A DNA stretch of 64,000 bases, taken from the NCBI GenBank assembly GCA_044240055.1, contig JBIIAG010000010.1, forward strand, positions 18,463-82,462, given 5' to 3'. Below are positions 6,887 to 22,923 of this stretch, in pieces. The notes beneath the pieces are model-generated. The model made no database searches. It saw nothing but the letters and a program-made list of their open reading frames with translations, and was not told the DNA's origin. Position numbers and translations under genes: made by a program. This DNA comes from Crocinitomicaceae bacterium. GTDB taxonomy: Bacteria > Bacteroidota > Bacteroidia > Flavobacteriales_D > Crocinitomicaceae. Position 1 is the first letter of the stretch. Each line of letters starts with the position of its first letter.

Positions 6887-7591
6887 ATGAAAAAATTAAG
6901 TTTACTTGTTACTGCAGCATTTTGTGTTGCGATTGGTTTAAATTCATGTTCTGTTGAAAAAAGACTTTACCGTCAAGGATTGACAGTTGATTGGAATTCA
7001 GGAATTAAAAAATCTAAACAAGCAGTTGAAGAAGTTGAAGAATCAGAAATTGCATCGAATTCAGTTCAATCGGTATCTAAATCAGAAGTTGTGACATCTA
7101 TTTCTTTAAATGATGAAGCGTCAATCAACAATGAGTTTACTACAGAGACTGTTTCTACTACTGAATACACTCCATCTTACACGGAAAACTCAGCGAACAC
7201 AGAAGAAAATGTGAGCGAAACAAACGTTATCAACCATGATAAAGTGAATGTATCGCAAAACAAAAAGAAAGAAACTTCAAAAGTAATCACGAAAAATAAT
7301 CACAAAAAATCTGTAAAATCAACATCATCTGGATCCATGAGTGATGATGATCTTATTGGAATTATTTTGTGTTTGGTAGGATTAGCACCTTTTGGAGTAA
7401 TGGTTGCAAAAGGAAAAAGAAGTTCTGAATTTAAAACGAATTTGTTGCTTTGGCTTGGTGGATTTGCTTGTATTATTTTGGGTGTTGTACTTGCTATAGG
7501 TGGTTTGTACATTGGGGCAATATTTTCATATTTAGCTTACATTTTATTATTATCATCATTCATTCACGGCCTTCTTTCAATTTTAAGATAG
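6887..7591 (+). CDS. lipoprotein with an S/T/N/E-rich linker and a C-terminal two-TM YqaE/Pmp3-like segment
   Basis: Lipobox GLNSC. A long low-complexity acidic/Ser-Thr region follows. The C-terminal helices LIGIILCLVGLAPFGVMV and LLWLGGFACIILGVVLAIGG...FIHGLLSIL resemble UPF0057/Pmp3 proteolipids. Confidence 0.5.
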   Translation: MKKLSLLVTAAFCVAIGLNSCSVEKRLYRQGLTVDWNSGIKKSKQAVEEVEESEIASNSVQSVSKSEVVTSISLNDEASINNEFTTETVSTTEYTPSYTENSANTEENVSETNVINHDKVNVSQNKKKETSKVITKNNHKKSVKSTSSGSMSDDDLIGIILCLVGLAPFGVMVAKGKRSSEFKTNLLLWLGGFACIILGVVLAIGGLYIGAIFSYLAYILLLSSFIHGLLSILR

Positions 7592-18161: not shown

Positions 18162-18885
18162 TCTATTCAACCTCGTTTTATTTCTGTTTTCCTTTTATTT
18201 CACCAACGATTCATCGGTATTCCTTCGCGCCTATCCTGGAATTATTACGAAAATTGAACAGAATACCGTTACCTTCAAATCTGGAAAGAAAATTACGTAT
18301 GATGACTTTGCTAAGAAATCGACATCTGCTTTATTAGATAAACCGGACATCGAAGATCAACTTTATTACACCTACAATACGGAAGGACCAGAAAAAAACA
18401 ATGACGCTGGAAGGATTCGAAACGATGCATTTTTTAAGGAAATCTACGGGCATTCAAGAGAAGAAGTTGCTAAAAACCTTACAACCGTGACTTGGTGTCC
18501 CAAATTAGTTAATGTAAAACTAAATTTTTCGAAAGTAAATAATGCAAATATTGCCTTAACGAAGGTTTCCAAAGAATTAGATGAACATCCTGAATGGAAG
18601 AAATATTTAACAAATATTGGCGGCACCTTTAATTGGAGAACAATAAGCGGCACCAATCGATTGAGTGCGCATTCATTTGGAATTACAATTGATATCAATA
18701 CATCCTTTTCAAATTATTGGCAATGGGATTGTGGATGCAAGGATGAATCAAAATCTTTAGGCTACAAAAATAGAATCCCAATGGGTATTGTCGAAATATT
18801 CGAAAAACATGGTTTCATTTGGGGTGGACGATGGAAACATTACGATACCATGCATTTTGAATACCGTCCAGAGTTTTTTAAGTAA
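18154..18885 (+). CDS. M15 family (VanY / D-Ala-D-Ala carboxypeptidase-like) zinc peptidase
   Basis: Motifs SAHSFGITIDIN (SxHxxGxAxD) and HGFIWGGRWKHYDTMHFEYRP, with an N-terminal hydrophobic anchor. Confidence 0.75.
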   Translation: MINLFNLVLFLFSFYFTNDSSVFLRAYPGIITKIEQNTVTFKSGKKITYDDFAKKSTSALLDKPDIEDQLYYTYNTEGPEKNNDAGRIRNDAFFKEIYGHSREEVAKNLTTVTWCPKLVNVKLNFSKVNNANIALTKVSKELDEHPEWKKYLTNIGGTFNWRTISGTNRLSAHSFGITIDINTSFSNYWQWDCGCKDESKSLGYKNRIPMGIVEIFEKHGFIWGGRWKHYDTMHFEYRPEFFK

Positions 18886-18948
18886 GTTCCGGGACGTTTA
18901 ATCTGCTGAAAGGATATTCATTTAGCGATTTAGCGACTCAAATATGCA

Positions 18949-19515
18949 TTACATTAATTCAATCTCACTTAAAATCATCGTTCCATTTAAAAGGCATTCT
19001 AATTCGAACTCTTTGCAATCTATGGATTCAATTTCCAAGACATCACCTGTATTCAGCATTTGATCAAAGCAACGAAATCGTCCTGTGTGAATAAAAAGGA
19101 TGATTCGTTTACCAGATACGGAAACCGACTCTTGTTGCGATTCCTCCATCGTGAATGCACGGGTAGAACCAACTGCTTGTGCATTACACATGAGGTTGAA
19201 ATCTCGAACTTTCCCAATACTTTTTGTTGACCACGAACCATCGAATGTATCTTGATCGTAAGGATCCAATTGTTTTTGGTAACGTCCTTCATGAATCAGT
19301 GTGATGGATCCTTCCAAAACCATAAGGATGCGCGTCAAACCAGAAAAATCAGAAAAGGTACTTTCTTCCACTTCAACGGTTGCTGTACTTATGCGGAAAA
19401 TGAAATCACGCTTCAAGAAATCGCTTTCAGATGGGAATTTTACTAATTCTGTAGTCGTTCCGTTCGCCCAAGCTTTTGGAGAAAATTGATCAGCAGGTAG
19501 GTAGTTAATTTTCAT
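18949..19515 (-). CDS. HutD family protein
   Basis: 188 aa. WANGTTTELVKFP ... FIFRISTATVEVEESTFSDFSGLTRILMVLEGSITL follows the HutD/Ves signature (W.NG.G.T.E, RIS.A.V, FS.F.G..R). Confidence 0.6.
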   Translation of the reverse strand: MKINYLPADQFSPKAWANGTTTELVKFPSESDFLKRDFIFRISTATVEVEESTFSDFSGLTRILMVLEGSITLIHEGRYQKQLDPYDQDTFDGSWSTKSIGKVRDFNLMCNAQAVGSTRAFTMEESQQESVSVSGKRIILFIHTGRFRCFDQMLNTGDVLEIESIDCKEFELECLLNGTMILSEIELM

Positions 19516-19548
19516 GAGGGGAAATTATACTCAAAAGTAGTTTTTTTT

Positions 19549-19626
19549 AATGTTCCAATGTGCTAATGTTCCAATGTGCTAATGTGCTAATGTGCTCGTG
19601 TTTTTATGCCGTGGTGGAGTGCTAAT
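19549..19626 (+). repeat. phased octamer array (GTTCCAAT/GTGCTAAT) upstream of the LamG/T9SS gene
   Basis: Read directly: GTTCCAAT GTGCTAAT GTTCCAAT GTGCTAAT GTGCTAAT GTGCTCGT GTTTTTAT, plus one more GTGCTAAT out of phase at about 19619. Confidence 0.8.
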
Positions 19627-19696
19627 GATTTACAAGATGAAAACGATATAATTTAAGGACTAAAAATATTTCACTAACTTCGTTCAAACTTAAACA

Positions 19697-21835
19697 ATGA
19701 AACATTTACTACTATTAATCAGCGTATTTCTTTCCCTTGGACTTTGGTCACAAGTACCGAGTTATGTTCCACAATATGGACTTTTAGGATACTATCCTTT
19801 TAATGGCACACCGAATGATGTCAGTGCAAATGCAGCAAACTTAACGAACAATGGAGCTGTACTTACCGCAGATCGATTTGGTACTGCAAATGCAGCATAT
19901 TCCTTTAATGGTGTCAATCAAAACTTAATCAATAACACACCAAATTTCACATTTAATCCGACTTCAAGTTTCACGTATTCATTTTGGTATAATCGCAATG
20001 TGACATCATTAAACGGTGTCCTAATGATGAACGCAACAAATGCTGCAGGGAACTTTATTTGGATTTTTCAAGCTGGTGCAACGAATTCGCAATTCGGAAC
20101 CAACAAACAACAATCAGCTTGGATTTGGGCTCCAACAGCATCGACAACAAGTACTTGGACTCACATTGTCTGTGTTTACAATGCAGGGGCGATGACACTT
20201 TACAAGAATAATGTTCAAGTGGCAACAGCAACCTTTACCCACACAAACGTAACTAGCGCAACTTTACCACTTTATATTGGCCGAGGTGTTGGTGGAGATT
20301 TTTACAATGGTAAAATGGATGATATTGGCATCTGGAATAGAGCCTTAACTCCTTGTGAGATCAACGATTTATACAACAGTTCCAATTCATTAACAGGCGT
20401 AAGTGCTGGAGTAGATATAAATAGTTGTAACAACTCATCCATTACACTGAACGGATCAGGAGCACTTAATTATTTTTGGAATCAAAATGTGTCTAATGGT
20501 ATCCCATTTACGCCGGCTACTAACGGGACCTACCTTGTAACTGGATTCAATGCAAATGGTTGCTCTGCATGGGATGAAACCAATGTTACTTTGGGACAAT
20601 TAAGCATAAATGCCGGACAAGATTTAGCTGTTTGTCCAGGAGATACCGTAACACTTTCAGCAACGGGCGCACAAACCTACACATGGACAAATTCTGTCAC
20701 GAATAATCAACCTTTTGTTGCCACGCAAAGTGGAACGTACATAGCAACAGGTGTTGATGGAGCATGTACAGATACAGATACCTTACAGATTAATATCTTA
20801 CCGTTACCACAAATCAACGCAGGAAATGACACCGTACTTTGTGCCGGTGGAATTGTTACTTTGAATGCTACAGGCGGACAAAACTACCAATGGAATAATA
20901 ACGTGCAAAACGCTGTTCCATTTAGCGCGTTAAATAGCGCTTCCTACATCGTTACAGGATTCAGTCCGGCTGGATGTGCTAACGAAGATACAGTAGAAGT
21001 CATCGCGAATCCAGTTCCTAATATCAATGCTGGGAATGATGTTACTACTTGTTCAGGTCAATCCGTTGTACTAACAGCAATTGGTGGTTTCAATTTACAA
21101 TGGAACAATGGCGTGCAAGATGGTATTCCATTTTTCCCAAGTACAAACGGTACTTATATTGTAACAGGAATGAGTAACGATGGATGTTATGGAACAGACA
21201 CATTGGATTTAAGCGTCGGAACTTTACCGGATATTTCAGCAGGAAACGACCAAGTAATTTGTCAAGGTGACTCAGTTGTATTGGCTGCAAACGGTGGCTC
21301 TACCTACCAATGGATCAATGGCGTAACAAATGGCGGCATTTTTTCTCCAACACAGACCATCACCCTCGAAGTAACTGGTTTCAGTGGTGCTGGATGTAGC
21401 AACATCGATTCGATGACCATTACAGTGAATAATCCCAGTCAAAGTACTGTAACAGCAAATGGAATTGATGTGTATACATTCAATGGAATTGAATACACCA
21501 CATCAGGTACATTCACACAAGTAATTTCCAATTCAGCAGGATGCGATAGTACCATTACACTTGTTTTAAGTATGGAATATACCGGTCTATCTGAAGGGGA
21601 TTTTTCTTCTTTGAACGTTTATCCAAATCCAACGAATGGGGAACTATTCATACTTATTCCGGCAGATTTAATTGGTCAAAAAGCTAGTTTAAGAGATGTT
21701 TCCGGAAAGAAAATTGCATCGATTGAATTGAACGAAGGAACAAGCAATTTTAATTTGAACGGACTTTCCAACGGAACTTATTTTATCGTGATTGATCAGC
21801 TGAGTTTAGCTCCGATTCGAGTAGTGAAAGAGTAA
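19697..21835 (+). CDS. LamG (concanavalin A-like lectin) domain surface protein with tandem Ig-like repeats and a type A T9SS C-terminal sorting domain
   Basis: Signal peptide. LamG_3-like N-terminus (YPFNGTPNDVS...WTHIVCVYNAGAMTLYKNN...LYIGRG...FYNGKMDDIGIWNRALT). There are 5-6 repeats of about 70 aa (INAGND..C.G..V.L.A.GG..YQW.N.V.NG.PF). The C-terminus VYPNPTNGELFI...GTYFIVI fits the type A CTD. Confidence 0.85.
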   Translation: MKHLLLLISVFLSLGLWSQVPSYVPQYGLLGYYPFNGTPNDVSANAANLTNNGAVLTADRFGTANAAYSFNGVNQNLINNTPNFTFNPTSSFTYSFWYNRNVTSLNGVLMMNATNAAGNFIWIFQAGATNSQFGTNKQQSAWIWAPTASTTSTWTHIVCVYNAGAMTLYKNNVQVATATFTHTNVTSATLPLYIGRGVGGDFYNGKMDDIGIWNRALTPCEINDLYNSSNSLTGVSAGVDINSCNNSSITLNGSGALNYFWNQNVSNGIPFTPATNGTYLVTGFNANGCSAWDETNVTLGQLSINAGQDLAVCPGDTVTLSATGAQTYTWTNSVTNNQPFVATQSGTYIATGVDGACTDTDTLQINILPLPQINAGNDTVLCAGGIVTLNATGGQNYQWNNNVQNAVPFSALNSASYIVTGFSPAGCANEDTVEVIANPVPNINAGNDVTTCSGQSVVLTAIGGFNLQWNNGVQDGIPFFPSTNGTYIVTGMSNDGCYGTDTLDLSVGTLPDISAGNDQVICQGDSVVLAANGGSTYQWINGVTNGGIFSPTQTITLEVTGFSGAGCSNIDSMTITVNNPSQSTVTANGIDVYTFNGIEYTTSGTFTQVISNSAGCDSTITLVLSMEYTGLSEGDFSSLNVYPNPTNGELFILIPADLIGQKASLRDVSGKKIASIELNEGTSNFNLNGLSNGTYFIVIDQLSLAPIRVVKE

Positions 21836-21837
21836 TG

Positions 21838-22000
21838 ATGTGCTAATTGGGGAATGTGCTAATGTGCTAATGTTTCAATGTGCTAATGTTTCAATGTGCT
21901 AATGTTTCAATGTGCTAATGTTTTAATGTGCTAATGTTTCAATGTGCTAATGTTTCAATGTGCTAATGTTTTAATGTGCTAATTGGTGGAAGTGCTAATT
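21838..22000 (+). repeat. tandem array with a 16-bp unit GTGCTAATGTTTCAAT (8-bp sub-period GTnnnAAT), about 10 units
   Basis: The GTGCTAA core recurs at 21840, 21856, 21864, 21880, 21896, 21912, 21928, 21944, 21960, 21976 and 21992. That is an exact 16-bp phase from 21864 onward. Variants are GTTTTAAT and TGGGGAAT. The array starts 3 nt after the stop codon of the LamG gene. Confidence 0.9.
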
Positions 22001-22059
22001 CCTCTATTGACAATTAAATGAGTAATATTGCTGCTTCAAAATACTTAACCTGACATTTT

Positions 22060-22923
22060 GTGCAAGAATTCATCGCATACATAAATCACCATCCACTGAG
22101 GATTATTGCTATACTCGTTGTGATTTTCGCTATTCTAGTTACGCTATTTTTTGTTTTGAAAAAGGGTATAAAGAAATGGCTAACACTTGGACTATTAATC
22201 GTTTTTATTCCACTTGCATTTAGGATTGTTAAATTGACACCGATAAAACGCTTAAACTTTTTCCAAGAAACGAGCATCACCAAAGAAAACACAGACCTCT
22301 CATCCTATGAAAAAAATGGTGTTAAAACCTTTGGGATTGACATTTCACACCATCAAGGGACGCTAAATTGGGATTCATTAATCACCTCAAAACATCCCAT
22401 ACAATTTGTCATCATTCGAGCGACATATGGCTCCACAATATTGGACCGGGAATTTCATCGAAACTGGAATGAGAGCAGCGGAAAACCATACATCAGAGGC
22501 GTTTATCACTATTATCGTCCTGACCAATCATCCGCAAGCCAATTTGATTTCTTTAAAAGCCACGTTTACCTCAAAAAAGGAGATTTGCCACCCGTTTTGG
22601 ATATTGAAGAAAATAGTTCGTTTGGAAGCGAAAACTTACTGAAAGGCGTTAAAAACTGGTTGAAATTAGCGGAACAACACTACCGAATCAAACCAATCAT
22701 TTATGCCAACTTGAACTTTTATTTACGCTACTTCAATACACCCGATTTTAAAAAATACCATTTTTGGATTGCAGCCTATGCGGGACATCGGCGTGTAAAC
22801 AATATTCCATGGACCTTTCTTCAATTTTCTGAAAACATGAGGGTAAAAGGGACAAATGAAAATGTAGATGGAAATGATTTCAACGGAAACAGAAAGGATT
22901 TAGAGAAATTGACAATTCGTTAA
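22060..22923 (+). CDS. membrane-anchored GH25 family muramidase (lysozyme)
   Basis: Two N-terminal hydrophobic helices. GH25 motifs are present: FGIDISHHQG, FVIIRATYG, GVYHYYRP, LPPVLDIEE. The start is GTG per the ORF track. Confidence 0.8.
   Translation: MQEFIAYINHHPLRIIAILVVIFAILVTLFFVLKKGIKKWLTLGLLIVFIPLAFRIVKLTPIKRLNFFQETSITKENTDLSSYEKNGVKTFGIDISHHQGTLNWDSLITSKHPIQFVIIRATYGSTILDREFHRNWNESSGKPYIRGVYHYYRPDQSSASQFDFFKSHVYLKKGDLPPVLDIEENSSFGSENLLKGVKNWLKLAEQHYRIKPIIYANLNFYLRYFNTPDFKKYHFWIAAYAGHRRVNNIPWTFLQFSENMRVKGTNENVDGNDFNGNRKDLEKLTIR

Follow-up and report, generated by a model that had tools for sequence, protein, structure and literature searches.

Octamer arrays on either side of a LamG surface-protein gene in a Crocinitomicaceae bacterium: probable members of a dispersed, oriented repeat family of Bacteroidota

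Short-unit tandem arrays that are reused at many intergenic sites include the STRR (short tandemly repeated repetitive) heptamers of heterocystous cyanobacteria. Dispersed intergenic tandem arrays are likewise formed by the heptamers GGGAATC in Xanthomonas and GGGGA(C/T)T in Nostoc/Anabaena, which lie nearer to their 5′ neighbour open reading frame (ORF) regardless of its orientation, on the coding strand after stop codons and on the non-coding strand before start codons; the neighbouring genes are unrelated in function, and the same spacers carry the heptamers in sister species, with large variation in length and sequence (Rehm et al. 2015, PMC4692102). Direct repeats of TAACTGA are found in Beggiatoaceae, Cyanobacteria and five Bacteroidetes, a few nucleotides from start codons (MacGregor 2015, PMC4679880), and multicopy tandem octanucleotide and heptanucleotide sites with a fixed four to five units in Geobacter metallireducens were read as regulator sites (PMC2700814). 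Here, we analysed a 64-kb stretch of a Crocinitomicaceae genome (hereafter the window; C55:18463-82462 of genome G000, with coordinates of its parts given as window positions), in which two arrays of the octamer GTGCTAAT lie on either side of the gene for a LamG-domain surface protein of the type IX secretion system (T9SS). These tracts are probably ordinary members of a dispersed, oriented, non-coding family of octamer simple sequence repeats (SSRs), (GTGCTAAT. NNNNTAAT)n, which would serve as untranslated spacer filler. The G000 genome consists of 2.47 Mb in 67 contigs, with 38% GC and 99.5% completeness.

The exact core GTGCTAAT occurred 16 times in the window against an expectation of 1.74, and none of 100 shuffles of the 64-kb window reached 16. 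Fifteen of these cores fall within the two arrays; the remaining one is an isolated minus-strand core (Table 1), which had been overlooked originally. Core positions, Tandem Repeats Finder output and the Laminin_G_3 and Por_Secre_tail domains of the intervening gene confirmed that two octamer arrays of the same orientation flank a LamG/T9SS gene. In the upstream array, the slots follow the order GTTCCAAT, GTGCTAAT, GTTCCAAT, GTGCTAAT, GTGCTAAT, GTGCTCGT: exact cores at 19560, 19576 and 19584 keep a strict 8-nt phase, with GTTCCAAT interleaved at 19552 and 19568 and the degenerate unit GTGCTCGT at 19592. A decayed GC-hairpin module, GCCGTGGTGGA, comes next and puts the fourth exact core, at 19619, 3 nt off the array phase. 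Thus the interleaving and the strict phase previously claimed for at least five upstream cores were borne out for three, and the exact cores number four. The decayed module differs by 4 mismatches from the terminal module of the family, TTCCGCCGCGGCGGA-GTGCTAAT, and a +3 core offset like that of the upstream array was also found at 4 other arrays.

The downstream array contains 11 exact cores across 21840-21999. Its block at 21861-21983 has a period of 16 with 7.7 copies and 97% matches, and its score of 232 is the highest of any array in the window (Tandem Repeats Finder). The repeating dimer is GTGCTAAT followed by GTTT(C/T)AAT, in 7-8 copies, so the 16-nt period had been recognised correctly while the earlier count of about 10 units was too high. 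The first slot, GTAATGAT (21832-21839), is degenerate and contains the stop codon of LamG (TAA, 21833-21835); 4 nt past this stop, the exact cores begin. At the 3′ end of this array, the last 16 nt (21984-21999), TGGTGGAA-GTGCTAAT, resemble the 3′ half of the hairpin module (GGTGGA-GTGCTAAT), a resemblance which suggests that the 5′ half of a downstream hairpin module may have been lost or overwritten by expansion of the 16-mer. A clustered regularly interspaced short palindromic repeat (CRISPR) array had been dismissed from the outset, in agreement with the 8/16-nt period and with the fact that the interleaved octamer is itself repeated.

We then counted arrays over the whole G000 genome. Exact cores formed 18 clusters, and allowing up to 1 mismatch yielded 22 arrays of 3 to 11 cores, all of them strictly 8-nt phased and intergenic, whereas a reversed-core control gave five clusters of 3 and none larger. 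Half of the arrays (11) are located on contig C26, 7 of them between 68 and 79 kb. Every array has its own second octamer, which ends in (T/C)AAT and takes turns with GTGCTAAT; examples are GTTTCAAT in the window and TATCTAAT, TGGTTAAT, TGACTAAT, GGACTAAT and TATTCAAT at other arrays. This alternation points to local expansion of 16-nt dimers. About 10 of the 22 arrays end in a GC palindrome with the consensus TTCCGCCGCGGCGGA followed by GTGCTAAT at a phase shift of +3; this terminal palindrome, TTCCGC-NNNN-GCGGAG (14-16 nt), is vestigial or absent at both window arrays. Across G000 and the relatives compared, the shortest arrays have 3 units and the longest more than 25. The approximately 33 flanking genes, as assigned by Pfam, are unrelated, mostly housekeeping and without a functional theme (PIG-L deacetylase, TonB receptor, HMA, amidotransferase, Kdo transferase, gmd (GDP-mannose dehydratase), M28 peptidase, FAD oxidase, AraC regulator, nitroreductase, aldehyde dehydrogenases, OmpA/PD40, AcrB and others). 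A tie of the arrays to T9SS or LamG genes was considered and rejected: 3 of the approximately 96 Por_Secre_tail (T9SS cargo, C-terminal domain or CTD) genes in G000 abut an array, no enrichment worth claiming. A genome-wide intergenic minisatellite family, one of the options raised originally, is accordingly what was found, and since the genome-wide count that had been proposed in advance returned about 22 arrays beside unrelated genes, a role specific to this locus is ruled out by the criterion set originally.

The arrays obey a polarity rule. For this analysis, arrays were oriented by their GTGCTAAT strand, and the gap on each side was taken as the distance to the nearest ORF, with the longest ORFs used. 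The 5′ end of an array adjoins the nearest coding sequence (CDS), where the array either follows a stop codon in sense or precedes a start codon, or the core promoter, in antisense, whereas the 3′ end lies tens to hundreds of nucleotides from the next gene (roughly 70-130) and is often capped by the GC palindrome. The 5′ gap was at most 20 nt for 18 of the 22 arrays of G000 and the 3′ gap for 6 of 22; 14 of those 18 arrays follow a co-oriented stop codon, and the other 4, out of 5 facing a divergent start codon, stand beside that start. Several G000 arrays fill their spacer completely or nearly so, leaving 0-9 nt free on either side. At loci from other genomes (n = 80), the median 5′ gap was 8 nt (at most 15 nt in 39/68) and the median 3′ gap 128 nt (at most 15 nt in 3/64); CDS starts within 15 nt were found at the 5′ versus the 3′ end in a ratio of 18:0, and stops in a ratio of 21:3. 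The stop codon occupied unit positions 5-7 (the TAAT phase) in 21 of 38 cases, compared with approximately 5 expected and with TGA and TAG included, and the stop codon of a gene (TAA/TGA/TAG) is therefore often the "zeroth" unit of its array. Viral contigs follow the same rule, with a median 5′ gap of 3 nt, although these contigs are redundant. On the sense strand, AUG and GUG recur every 8 nt (AAU|GUG), while the antisense strand, AUUAGCAC, is free of start codons, in keeping with the lack of sense arrays near downstream start codons. As a separate observation, facing sense and antisense arrays that lie 30-80 nt apart and could form foldbacks were seen at C26:78617-78855, C26:74628-74859 and C4:151315-151510, where each arm follows the polarity rule for its own neighbouring gene.

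For the two window arrays, the rule, as read from sequence, puts the upstream one on the start and putative promoter side of the HutD-family gene and the downstream one at the stop codon of LamG. HutD lies to the left of LamG and is divergent from it, with GH25 and GH3 genes to the right, and it is because HutD and LamG are divergent that the two arrays seem to flank LamG in direct orientation. A probable HutD −7 box lies between the 5′ end of the upstream array and the HutD ATG, and is kept in the related genome G475 as TATTTTTG; we take its TAnnTTTG-type sequence to be a −7 box of the kind generally known from Bacteroidota promoters. The probable −7 box of LamG is conserved as TAnnTTCG in four species (G000, G475, G046 and G072). 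The 5′ end of the upstream array is located 9 nt beyond the putative HutD box, and its 3′ end approximately 50 nt from the putative LamG box. No canonical intrinsic terminator was found after LamG or beside the arrays in 19400-22200, and Rfam covariance models run on 18800-22400 returned nothing near any gathering score. Like the SSRs of contingency loci, these are hypermutable short tandem repeats adjoining a surface-protein gene. Unlike those, both arrays lie outside the CDS and the upstream one outside the putative promoter core, so that changes in unit number cannot shift the reading frame or the promoter spacing, and surface genes are not enriched beside arrays.

Table 1. Positions of the arrays, genes and putative promoter elements in the window
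Feature	Position	Strand	Basis or remark
Upstream octamer array	19548..19599	+	About 6 in-phase slots in the TAATGTTC register; Tandem Repeats Finder period 8 and 16
Decayed GC-hairpin module GCCGTGGTGGA, then terminal core GTGCTAAT, offset +3	19600..19626	+	Likeness to the family module
Downstream octamer array, 21 slots	21832..21999	+	Tandem Repeats Finder and core positions
Isolated single GTGCTAAT core, outside any array	7381..7388	-	Exact core scan
LamG protein gene, Laminin_G_3 and T9SS C-terminal sorting domain (Por_Secre_tail)	19697..21835	+	Pfam domains
HutD-family gene	18949..19515	-	PF05962, 1.4e-27
GH25 muramidase gene, 60 nt past the 3′ end of the downstream array	22060..22923	+	Domain match
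Probable HutD promoter −7 box TACTTTTG (TAnnTTTG match)	19532..19539	-	Sequence reading
Probable LamG promoter −7 box TAACTTCG, 14 nt before the ATG	19675..19682	+	Inferred from conservation

The arrangement had been taken as a possible switch, in which recombination or slippage between the direct arrays would excise and restore the 2.1-kb LamG/T9SS cassette or change its copy number. We inspected the structure of the locus in five relatives that carry it (G475, G046, G007, G072 and G002). In G475, the nearest relative found, at 79-81% nucleotide identity, LamG stands between two arrays, an upstream one of 14 units with the alternate GTTTCAAT and a downstream one of 12 units with other alternates and an intact hairpin. 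G046 is without the upstream array, and its downstream side comprises a few units and three hairpins, with CACTGNN heptamers beyond them. Octamer arrays are absent from this locus in G007, where heptamers alone (CACTGNN) follow the LamG stop, and decayed CACTAGT heptamers lie upstream of LamG in G072. These heptamers take up the gene-end spacers that the octamers also use (L047:5270-5340 in G046, the reverse complement of L048 near the LamG stop in G007, and L049:1740-1800 in G072), and CACTGAT is one base off a rotation of the published TAACTGA unit. The LamG gene is retained in 5/5 of these relatives, and its C-terminus, IRVVKE, is conserved among them; among genus genomes with the locus, no deletion junction lacking LamG was seen. 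In G048, a GH25 gene has no LamG next to it, but it lies on a short contig (4.8 kb), in a distant species and among other genes, and is therefore uninformative. Two metagenome scans with locus-specific words gave no matches, in collections that may leave out the window's own lineage.

The shared orientation of the two arrays, in G000 and likewise in G475, agrees with a switch. Against it, the upstream array belongs to HutD rather than LamG by the polarity rule, the longest identical stretch common to both arrays (counted by eye) is only about 21 nt across 2.2 kb, the family flanks mostly housekeeping genes, and LamG is kept whether the arrays are present, partial or absent. A further point in its favour comes from outside the window, at C26:72380-74635 (L023:8380-10636), where a 2.3-kb cassette stands between two direct sense arrays in G000; it encodes a T9SS cargo protein with DOMON, Ig, PKD and CTD domains together with an ankyrin-repeat gene. 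This cassette is present in G046, G002 and G072 and absent in G475 and G007, and at the corresponding site in G475 one continuous merged array joins the flanks. If G475 is the sister of G000, the absence corresponds to a deletion between the arrays. Arrays can thus, as far as these comparisons indicate, be endpoints of gene-cassette insertions and deletions (indels) on an evolutionary scale; this does not demonstrate switching, because only one such case was seen, in a region with an array in each of its spacers, and in array-rich regions any whole-gene indel will end in arrays. Overall, the switch proposed for the LamG cassette is unsupported here, and we regard it as very unlikely.

Comparison of orthologous spacers between G000 and G475 showed what does change. 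Nine spacers were compared: on C26, 7/7 carry arrays in both genomes, with G000/G475 unit numbers at six of them of 14/10, 7/28, 17/10, 14/13, 7/10 and 7/7, and the window spacers have 6/14 (upstream) and 21/12 (downstream). Unit numbers, available at eight spacers, were unequal at seven. Since the arrays occupy the same spacers with changed counts and alternates, their position is stable and their content labile.

Between species, we searched for 2 cores at 16-nt spacing within the genus and order, and for 3 cores at 16-nt spacing in a species-representative collection. Among other species of the genus, 3 of 24 had the 2-core pattern, and among other genera of the order 0 of 16. A sample of the phylum contained the 2-core pattern in 8 of 401 genomes (approximately 2%), with a reversed control of 0. 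The collection returned at least 119 stretches with the 3-core pattern, nearly all from Bacteroidota with a few from elsewhere; the matches listed include Chitinophagaceae, Saprospiraceae, Bacteroidales, Flavobacteriales and Sphingobacteriales, and, as isolates, Phocaeicola, Longitalea and Flaviaesturariibacter. A further 33 viral stretches match the spaced GTGCTAAT pattern, and many loci in other genomes bear additional octamer or heptamer arrays beside those of GTGCTAAT. The array family is patchy across Bacteroidota and their phages.

This distribution bears on a second explanation, that the arrays are multivalent sites for a conserved DNA- or RNA-binding protein of Bacteroidota, one GTGCTAAT per 16 nt, which would regulate transcription, mRNA stability or translation of the neighbouring genes. 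The core is indeed constant between distant families although the octamer between the cores varies freely, the arrays keep strict positions with respect to start and stop codons, and S1, Csp or CsrA-type binders have been proposed for the TAACTGA repeats (MacGregor 2015, PMC4679880). A binding site would however have to be reconciled with patchy occurrence in about 2% of the species sampled, with copy numbers that vary wildly at orthologous sites, with the presence of different units, including heptamers, at the same site in other species, and with adjacent genes that share no functional theme; no candidate protein emerged. A binding array, also among the options raised originally, is unlikely.

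The dispersed, intergenic occurrence of the family, its recurrent terminal palindrome and its seemingly burst-like copy-number distribution among species would also be expected of mobile elements similar to REP/BIME (repetitive extragenic palindromic sequences/bacterial interspersed mosaic elements) or MITEs (miniature inverted-repeat transposable elements), spread by a RAYT (REP-associated tyrosine transposase) of the IS200/IS605 Y1 type. REP/BIME elements are similarly dispersed and extragenic, with a small GC-rich palindrome and frequent location at gene ends; the body of the present arrays, unlike theirs, is a direct octamer array and not an imperfect palindrome of 20-40 nt, and no RAYT gene was found in G000. 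A RAYT/Y1 transposase was rejected as the driver: the model Y1_Tnp (PF01797) had 0 matches in this 99.5%-complete genome while matching control genomes. Many arrays, including the one downstream of LamG, have no palindrome. The arrays occupy orthologous sites in different species and do not represent new insertions, and no terminal inverted repeats or target duplications were established. Mobility by such a transposase is, in our view, hardly credible.

Several further features of the G000 genome were recorded beside the arrays. The start of contig C14 (C14:1-350) carries a 70-bp tandem repeat in at least 3 copies, and every copy contains TTCCGCCGGGGCGGA, a GC palindrome related to that of the arrays; since the full 70 bp recur, a CRISPR array can be dismissed. 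Two short arrays, at C44:150-265 and C47:28730-28800, follow a common segment of approximately 45 nt (GGGATCA-GAGCG-CAGCGAGTAATCCC), each a few hundred nucleotides past a tRNA gene or the 3′ end of a tRNA and near a contig end, and this segment may be a repeated element or the remnant of an integration site. At C26:20112-22574, an array with its hairpin occupies the entire 144-nt spacer between two ORFs of the aldehyde dehydrogenase family, one full-length (481 aa) and one shorter (Aldedh, 290 aa, profile positions 6-233/461), which may represent a split or truncated paralogue.

Returning to the reading of the tracts as members of a filler-like SSR family, we envisage the following course. Arrays would grow and shrink through replication slippage or unequal exchange of 8- and 16-nt units, and the 97%-identical 16-mer block downstream of LamG would be a recent expansion. 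They would persist as tolerated, structure-poor and stop-rich untranslated filler, the orientation rule would arise in part from start codons, in that AUG and GUG on the sense strand would be harmful in a leader, and no role specific to the LamG gene would be involved; as a by-product, arrays would supply endpoints for the deletion or insertion of whole cassettes. Folding of array RNA was no better than that of shuffled sequences (z = +0.7, +2.5 and +1.7). Selection for a stop codon in each unit was also considered and rejected: TGG at positions 5-7 is not depleted (6 versus 4.7 expected), and CAAT-type alternates are stop-free as well.

Some observations weigh against this reading. Neutral slippage explains neither the presence of the same octamer in distant Bacteroidota families nor the pinning of the 5′ end to a CDS, and avoidance of upstream AUG codons leaves the 21:3 bias of sense over antisense at stop codons unexplained. 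The start-codon distances may be somewhat flattered by the choice of the longest ORFs, and the agreement in viruses comes from redundant contigs. The GC hairpin has G.U-type pairs in array orientation only, with loops CGCG, CUCG and UGCG and, read by eye, UUCG and UACG; this pairing hints, as weak evidence, at a strand-specific role (RNA or single-stranded DNA) that "filler" would not capture. In a further reading, the GTGCTAAT arrays would be more than slippage debris and would form, with their YNMG-type GC hairpin, a Bacteroidota-wide untranslated element that is recognised strand-specifically as RNA or single-stranded DNA and installed directionally, in stop-codon phase and against starts, and whose direct copies would drive the gain and loss of cassettes, including those of T9SS surface proteins. 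We consider such an element quite improbable, and retain the dispersed SSR family as the probable explanation.

With respect to the described systems, the GTGCTAAT arrays share with the Xanthomonas and Nostoc heptamers (PMC4692102) their dispersal, the 5′-neighbour rule, neutrality towards gene function and variability between species. They differ in their 8-nt, AT-rich unit, their Bacteroidota host and the GC palindrome that often caps the 3′ end, and they have no G-tract, no G-quadruplex and no preference for four units. Like TAACTGA (PMC4679880), they are intergenic, stop-containing, fixed in orientation at starts and patchy across phyla, with long arrays in some Bacteroidetes, and related CACTGNN/CACTAGT heptamers accompany the octamers in G046, G007 and G072; unlike TAACTGA, their period is 8 rather than 7, and most of them stand in sense after stop codons. 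The Geobacter sites (PMC2700814) resemble them as short-unit tandem arrays at many intergenic sites of one genome, yet the copy number of GTGCTAAT is open-ended, from 3 to more than 25, and unit and taxon are different, as they also are in comparison with the STRR heptamers. Literature searches by sequence (GTGCTAAT, ATTAGCAC and dimers) returned primers and unrelated matches only, with no paper on the GTGCTAAT octamer found, and a search for octanucleotide repeats in Bacteroidetes found only PMC4679880. The GTGCTAAT family is a new octamer and a Bacteroidota case of the known class of oriented intergenic heptamer and octamer SSRs.

The window tracts should accordingly not be taken for a switch specific to LamG, for the relic of a CRISPR array or for a regulator site of that gene. 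One octamer is reused, phased with stop codons, at the gene boundaries of many Bacteroidota and of their phages, and the polarity rule published for the heptamers of Xanthomonas, Nostoc and Beggiatoaceae now spans several phyla and unit lengths. In practice, the arrays break assemblies, and they may mark hotspots of cassette insertion and deletion.

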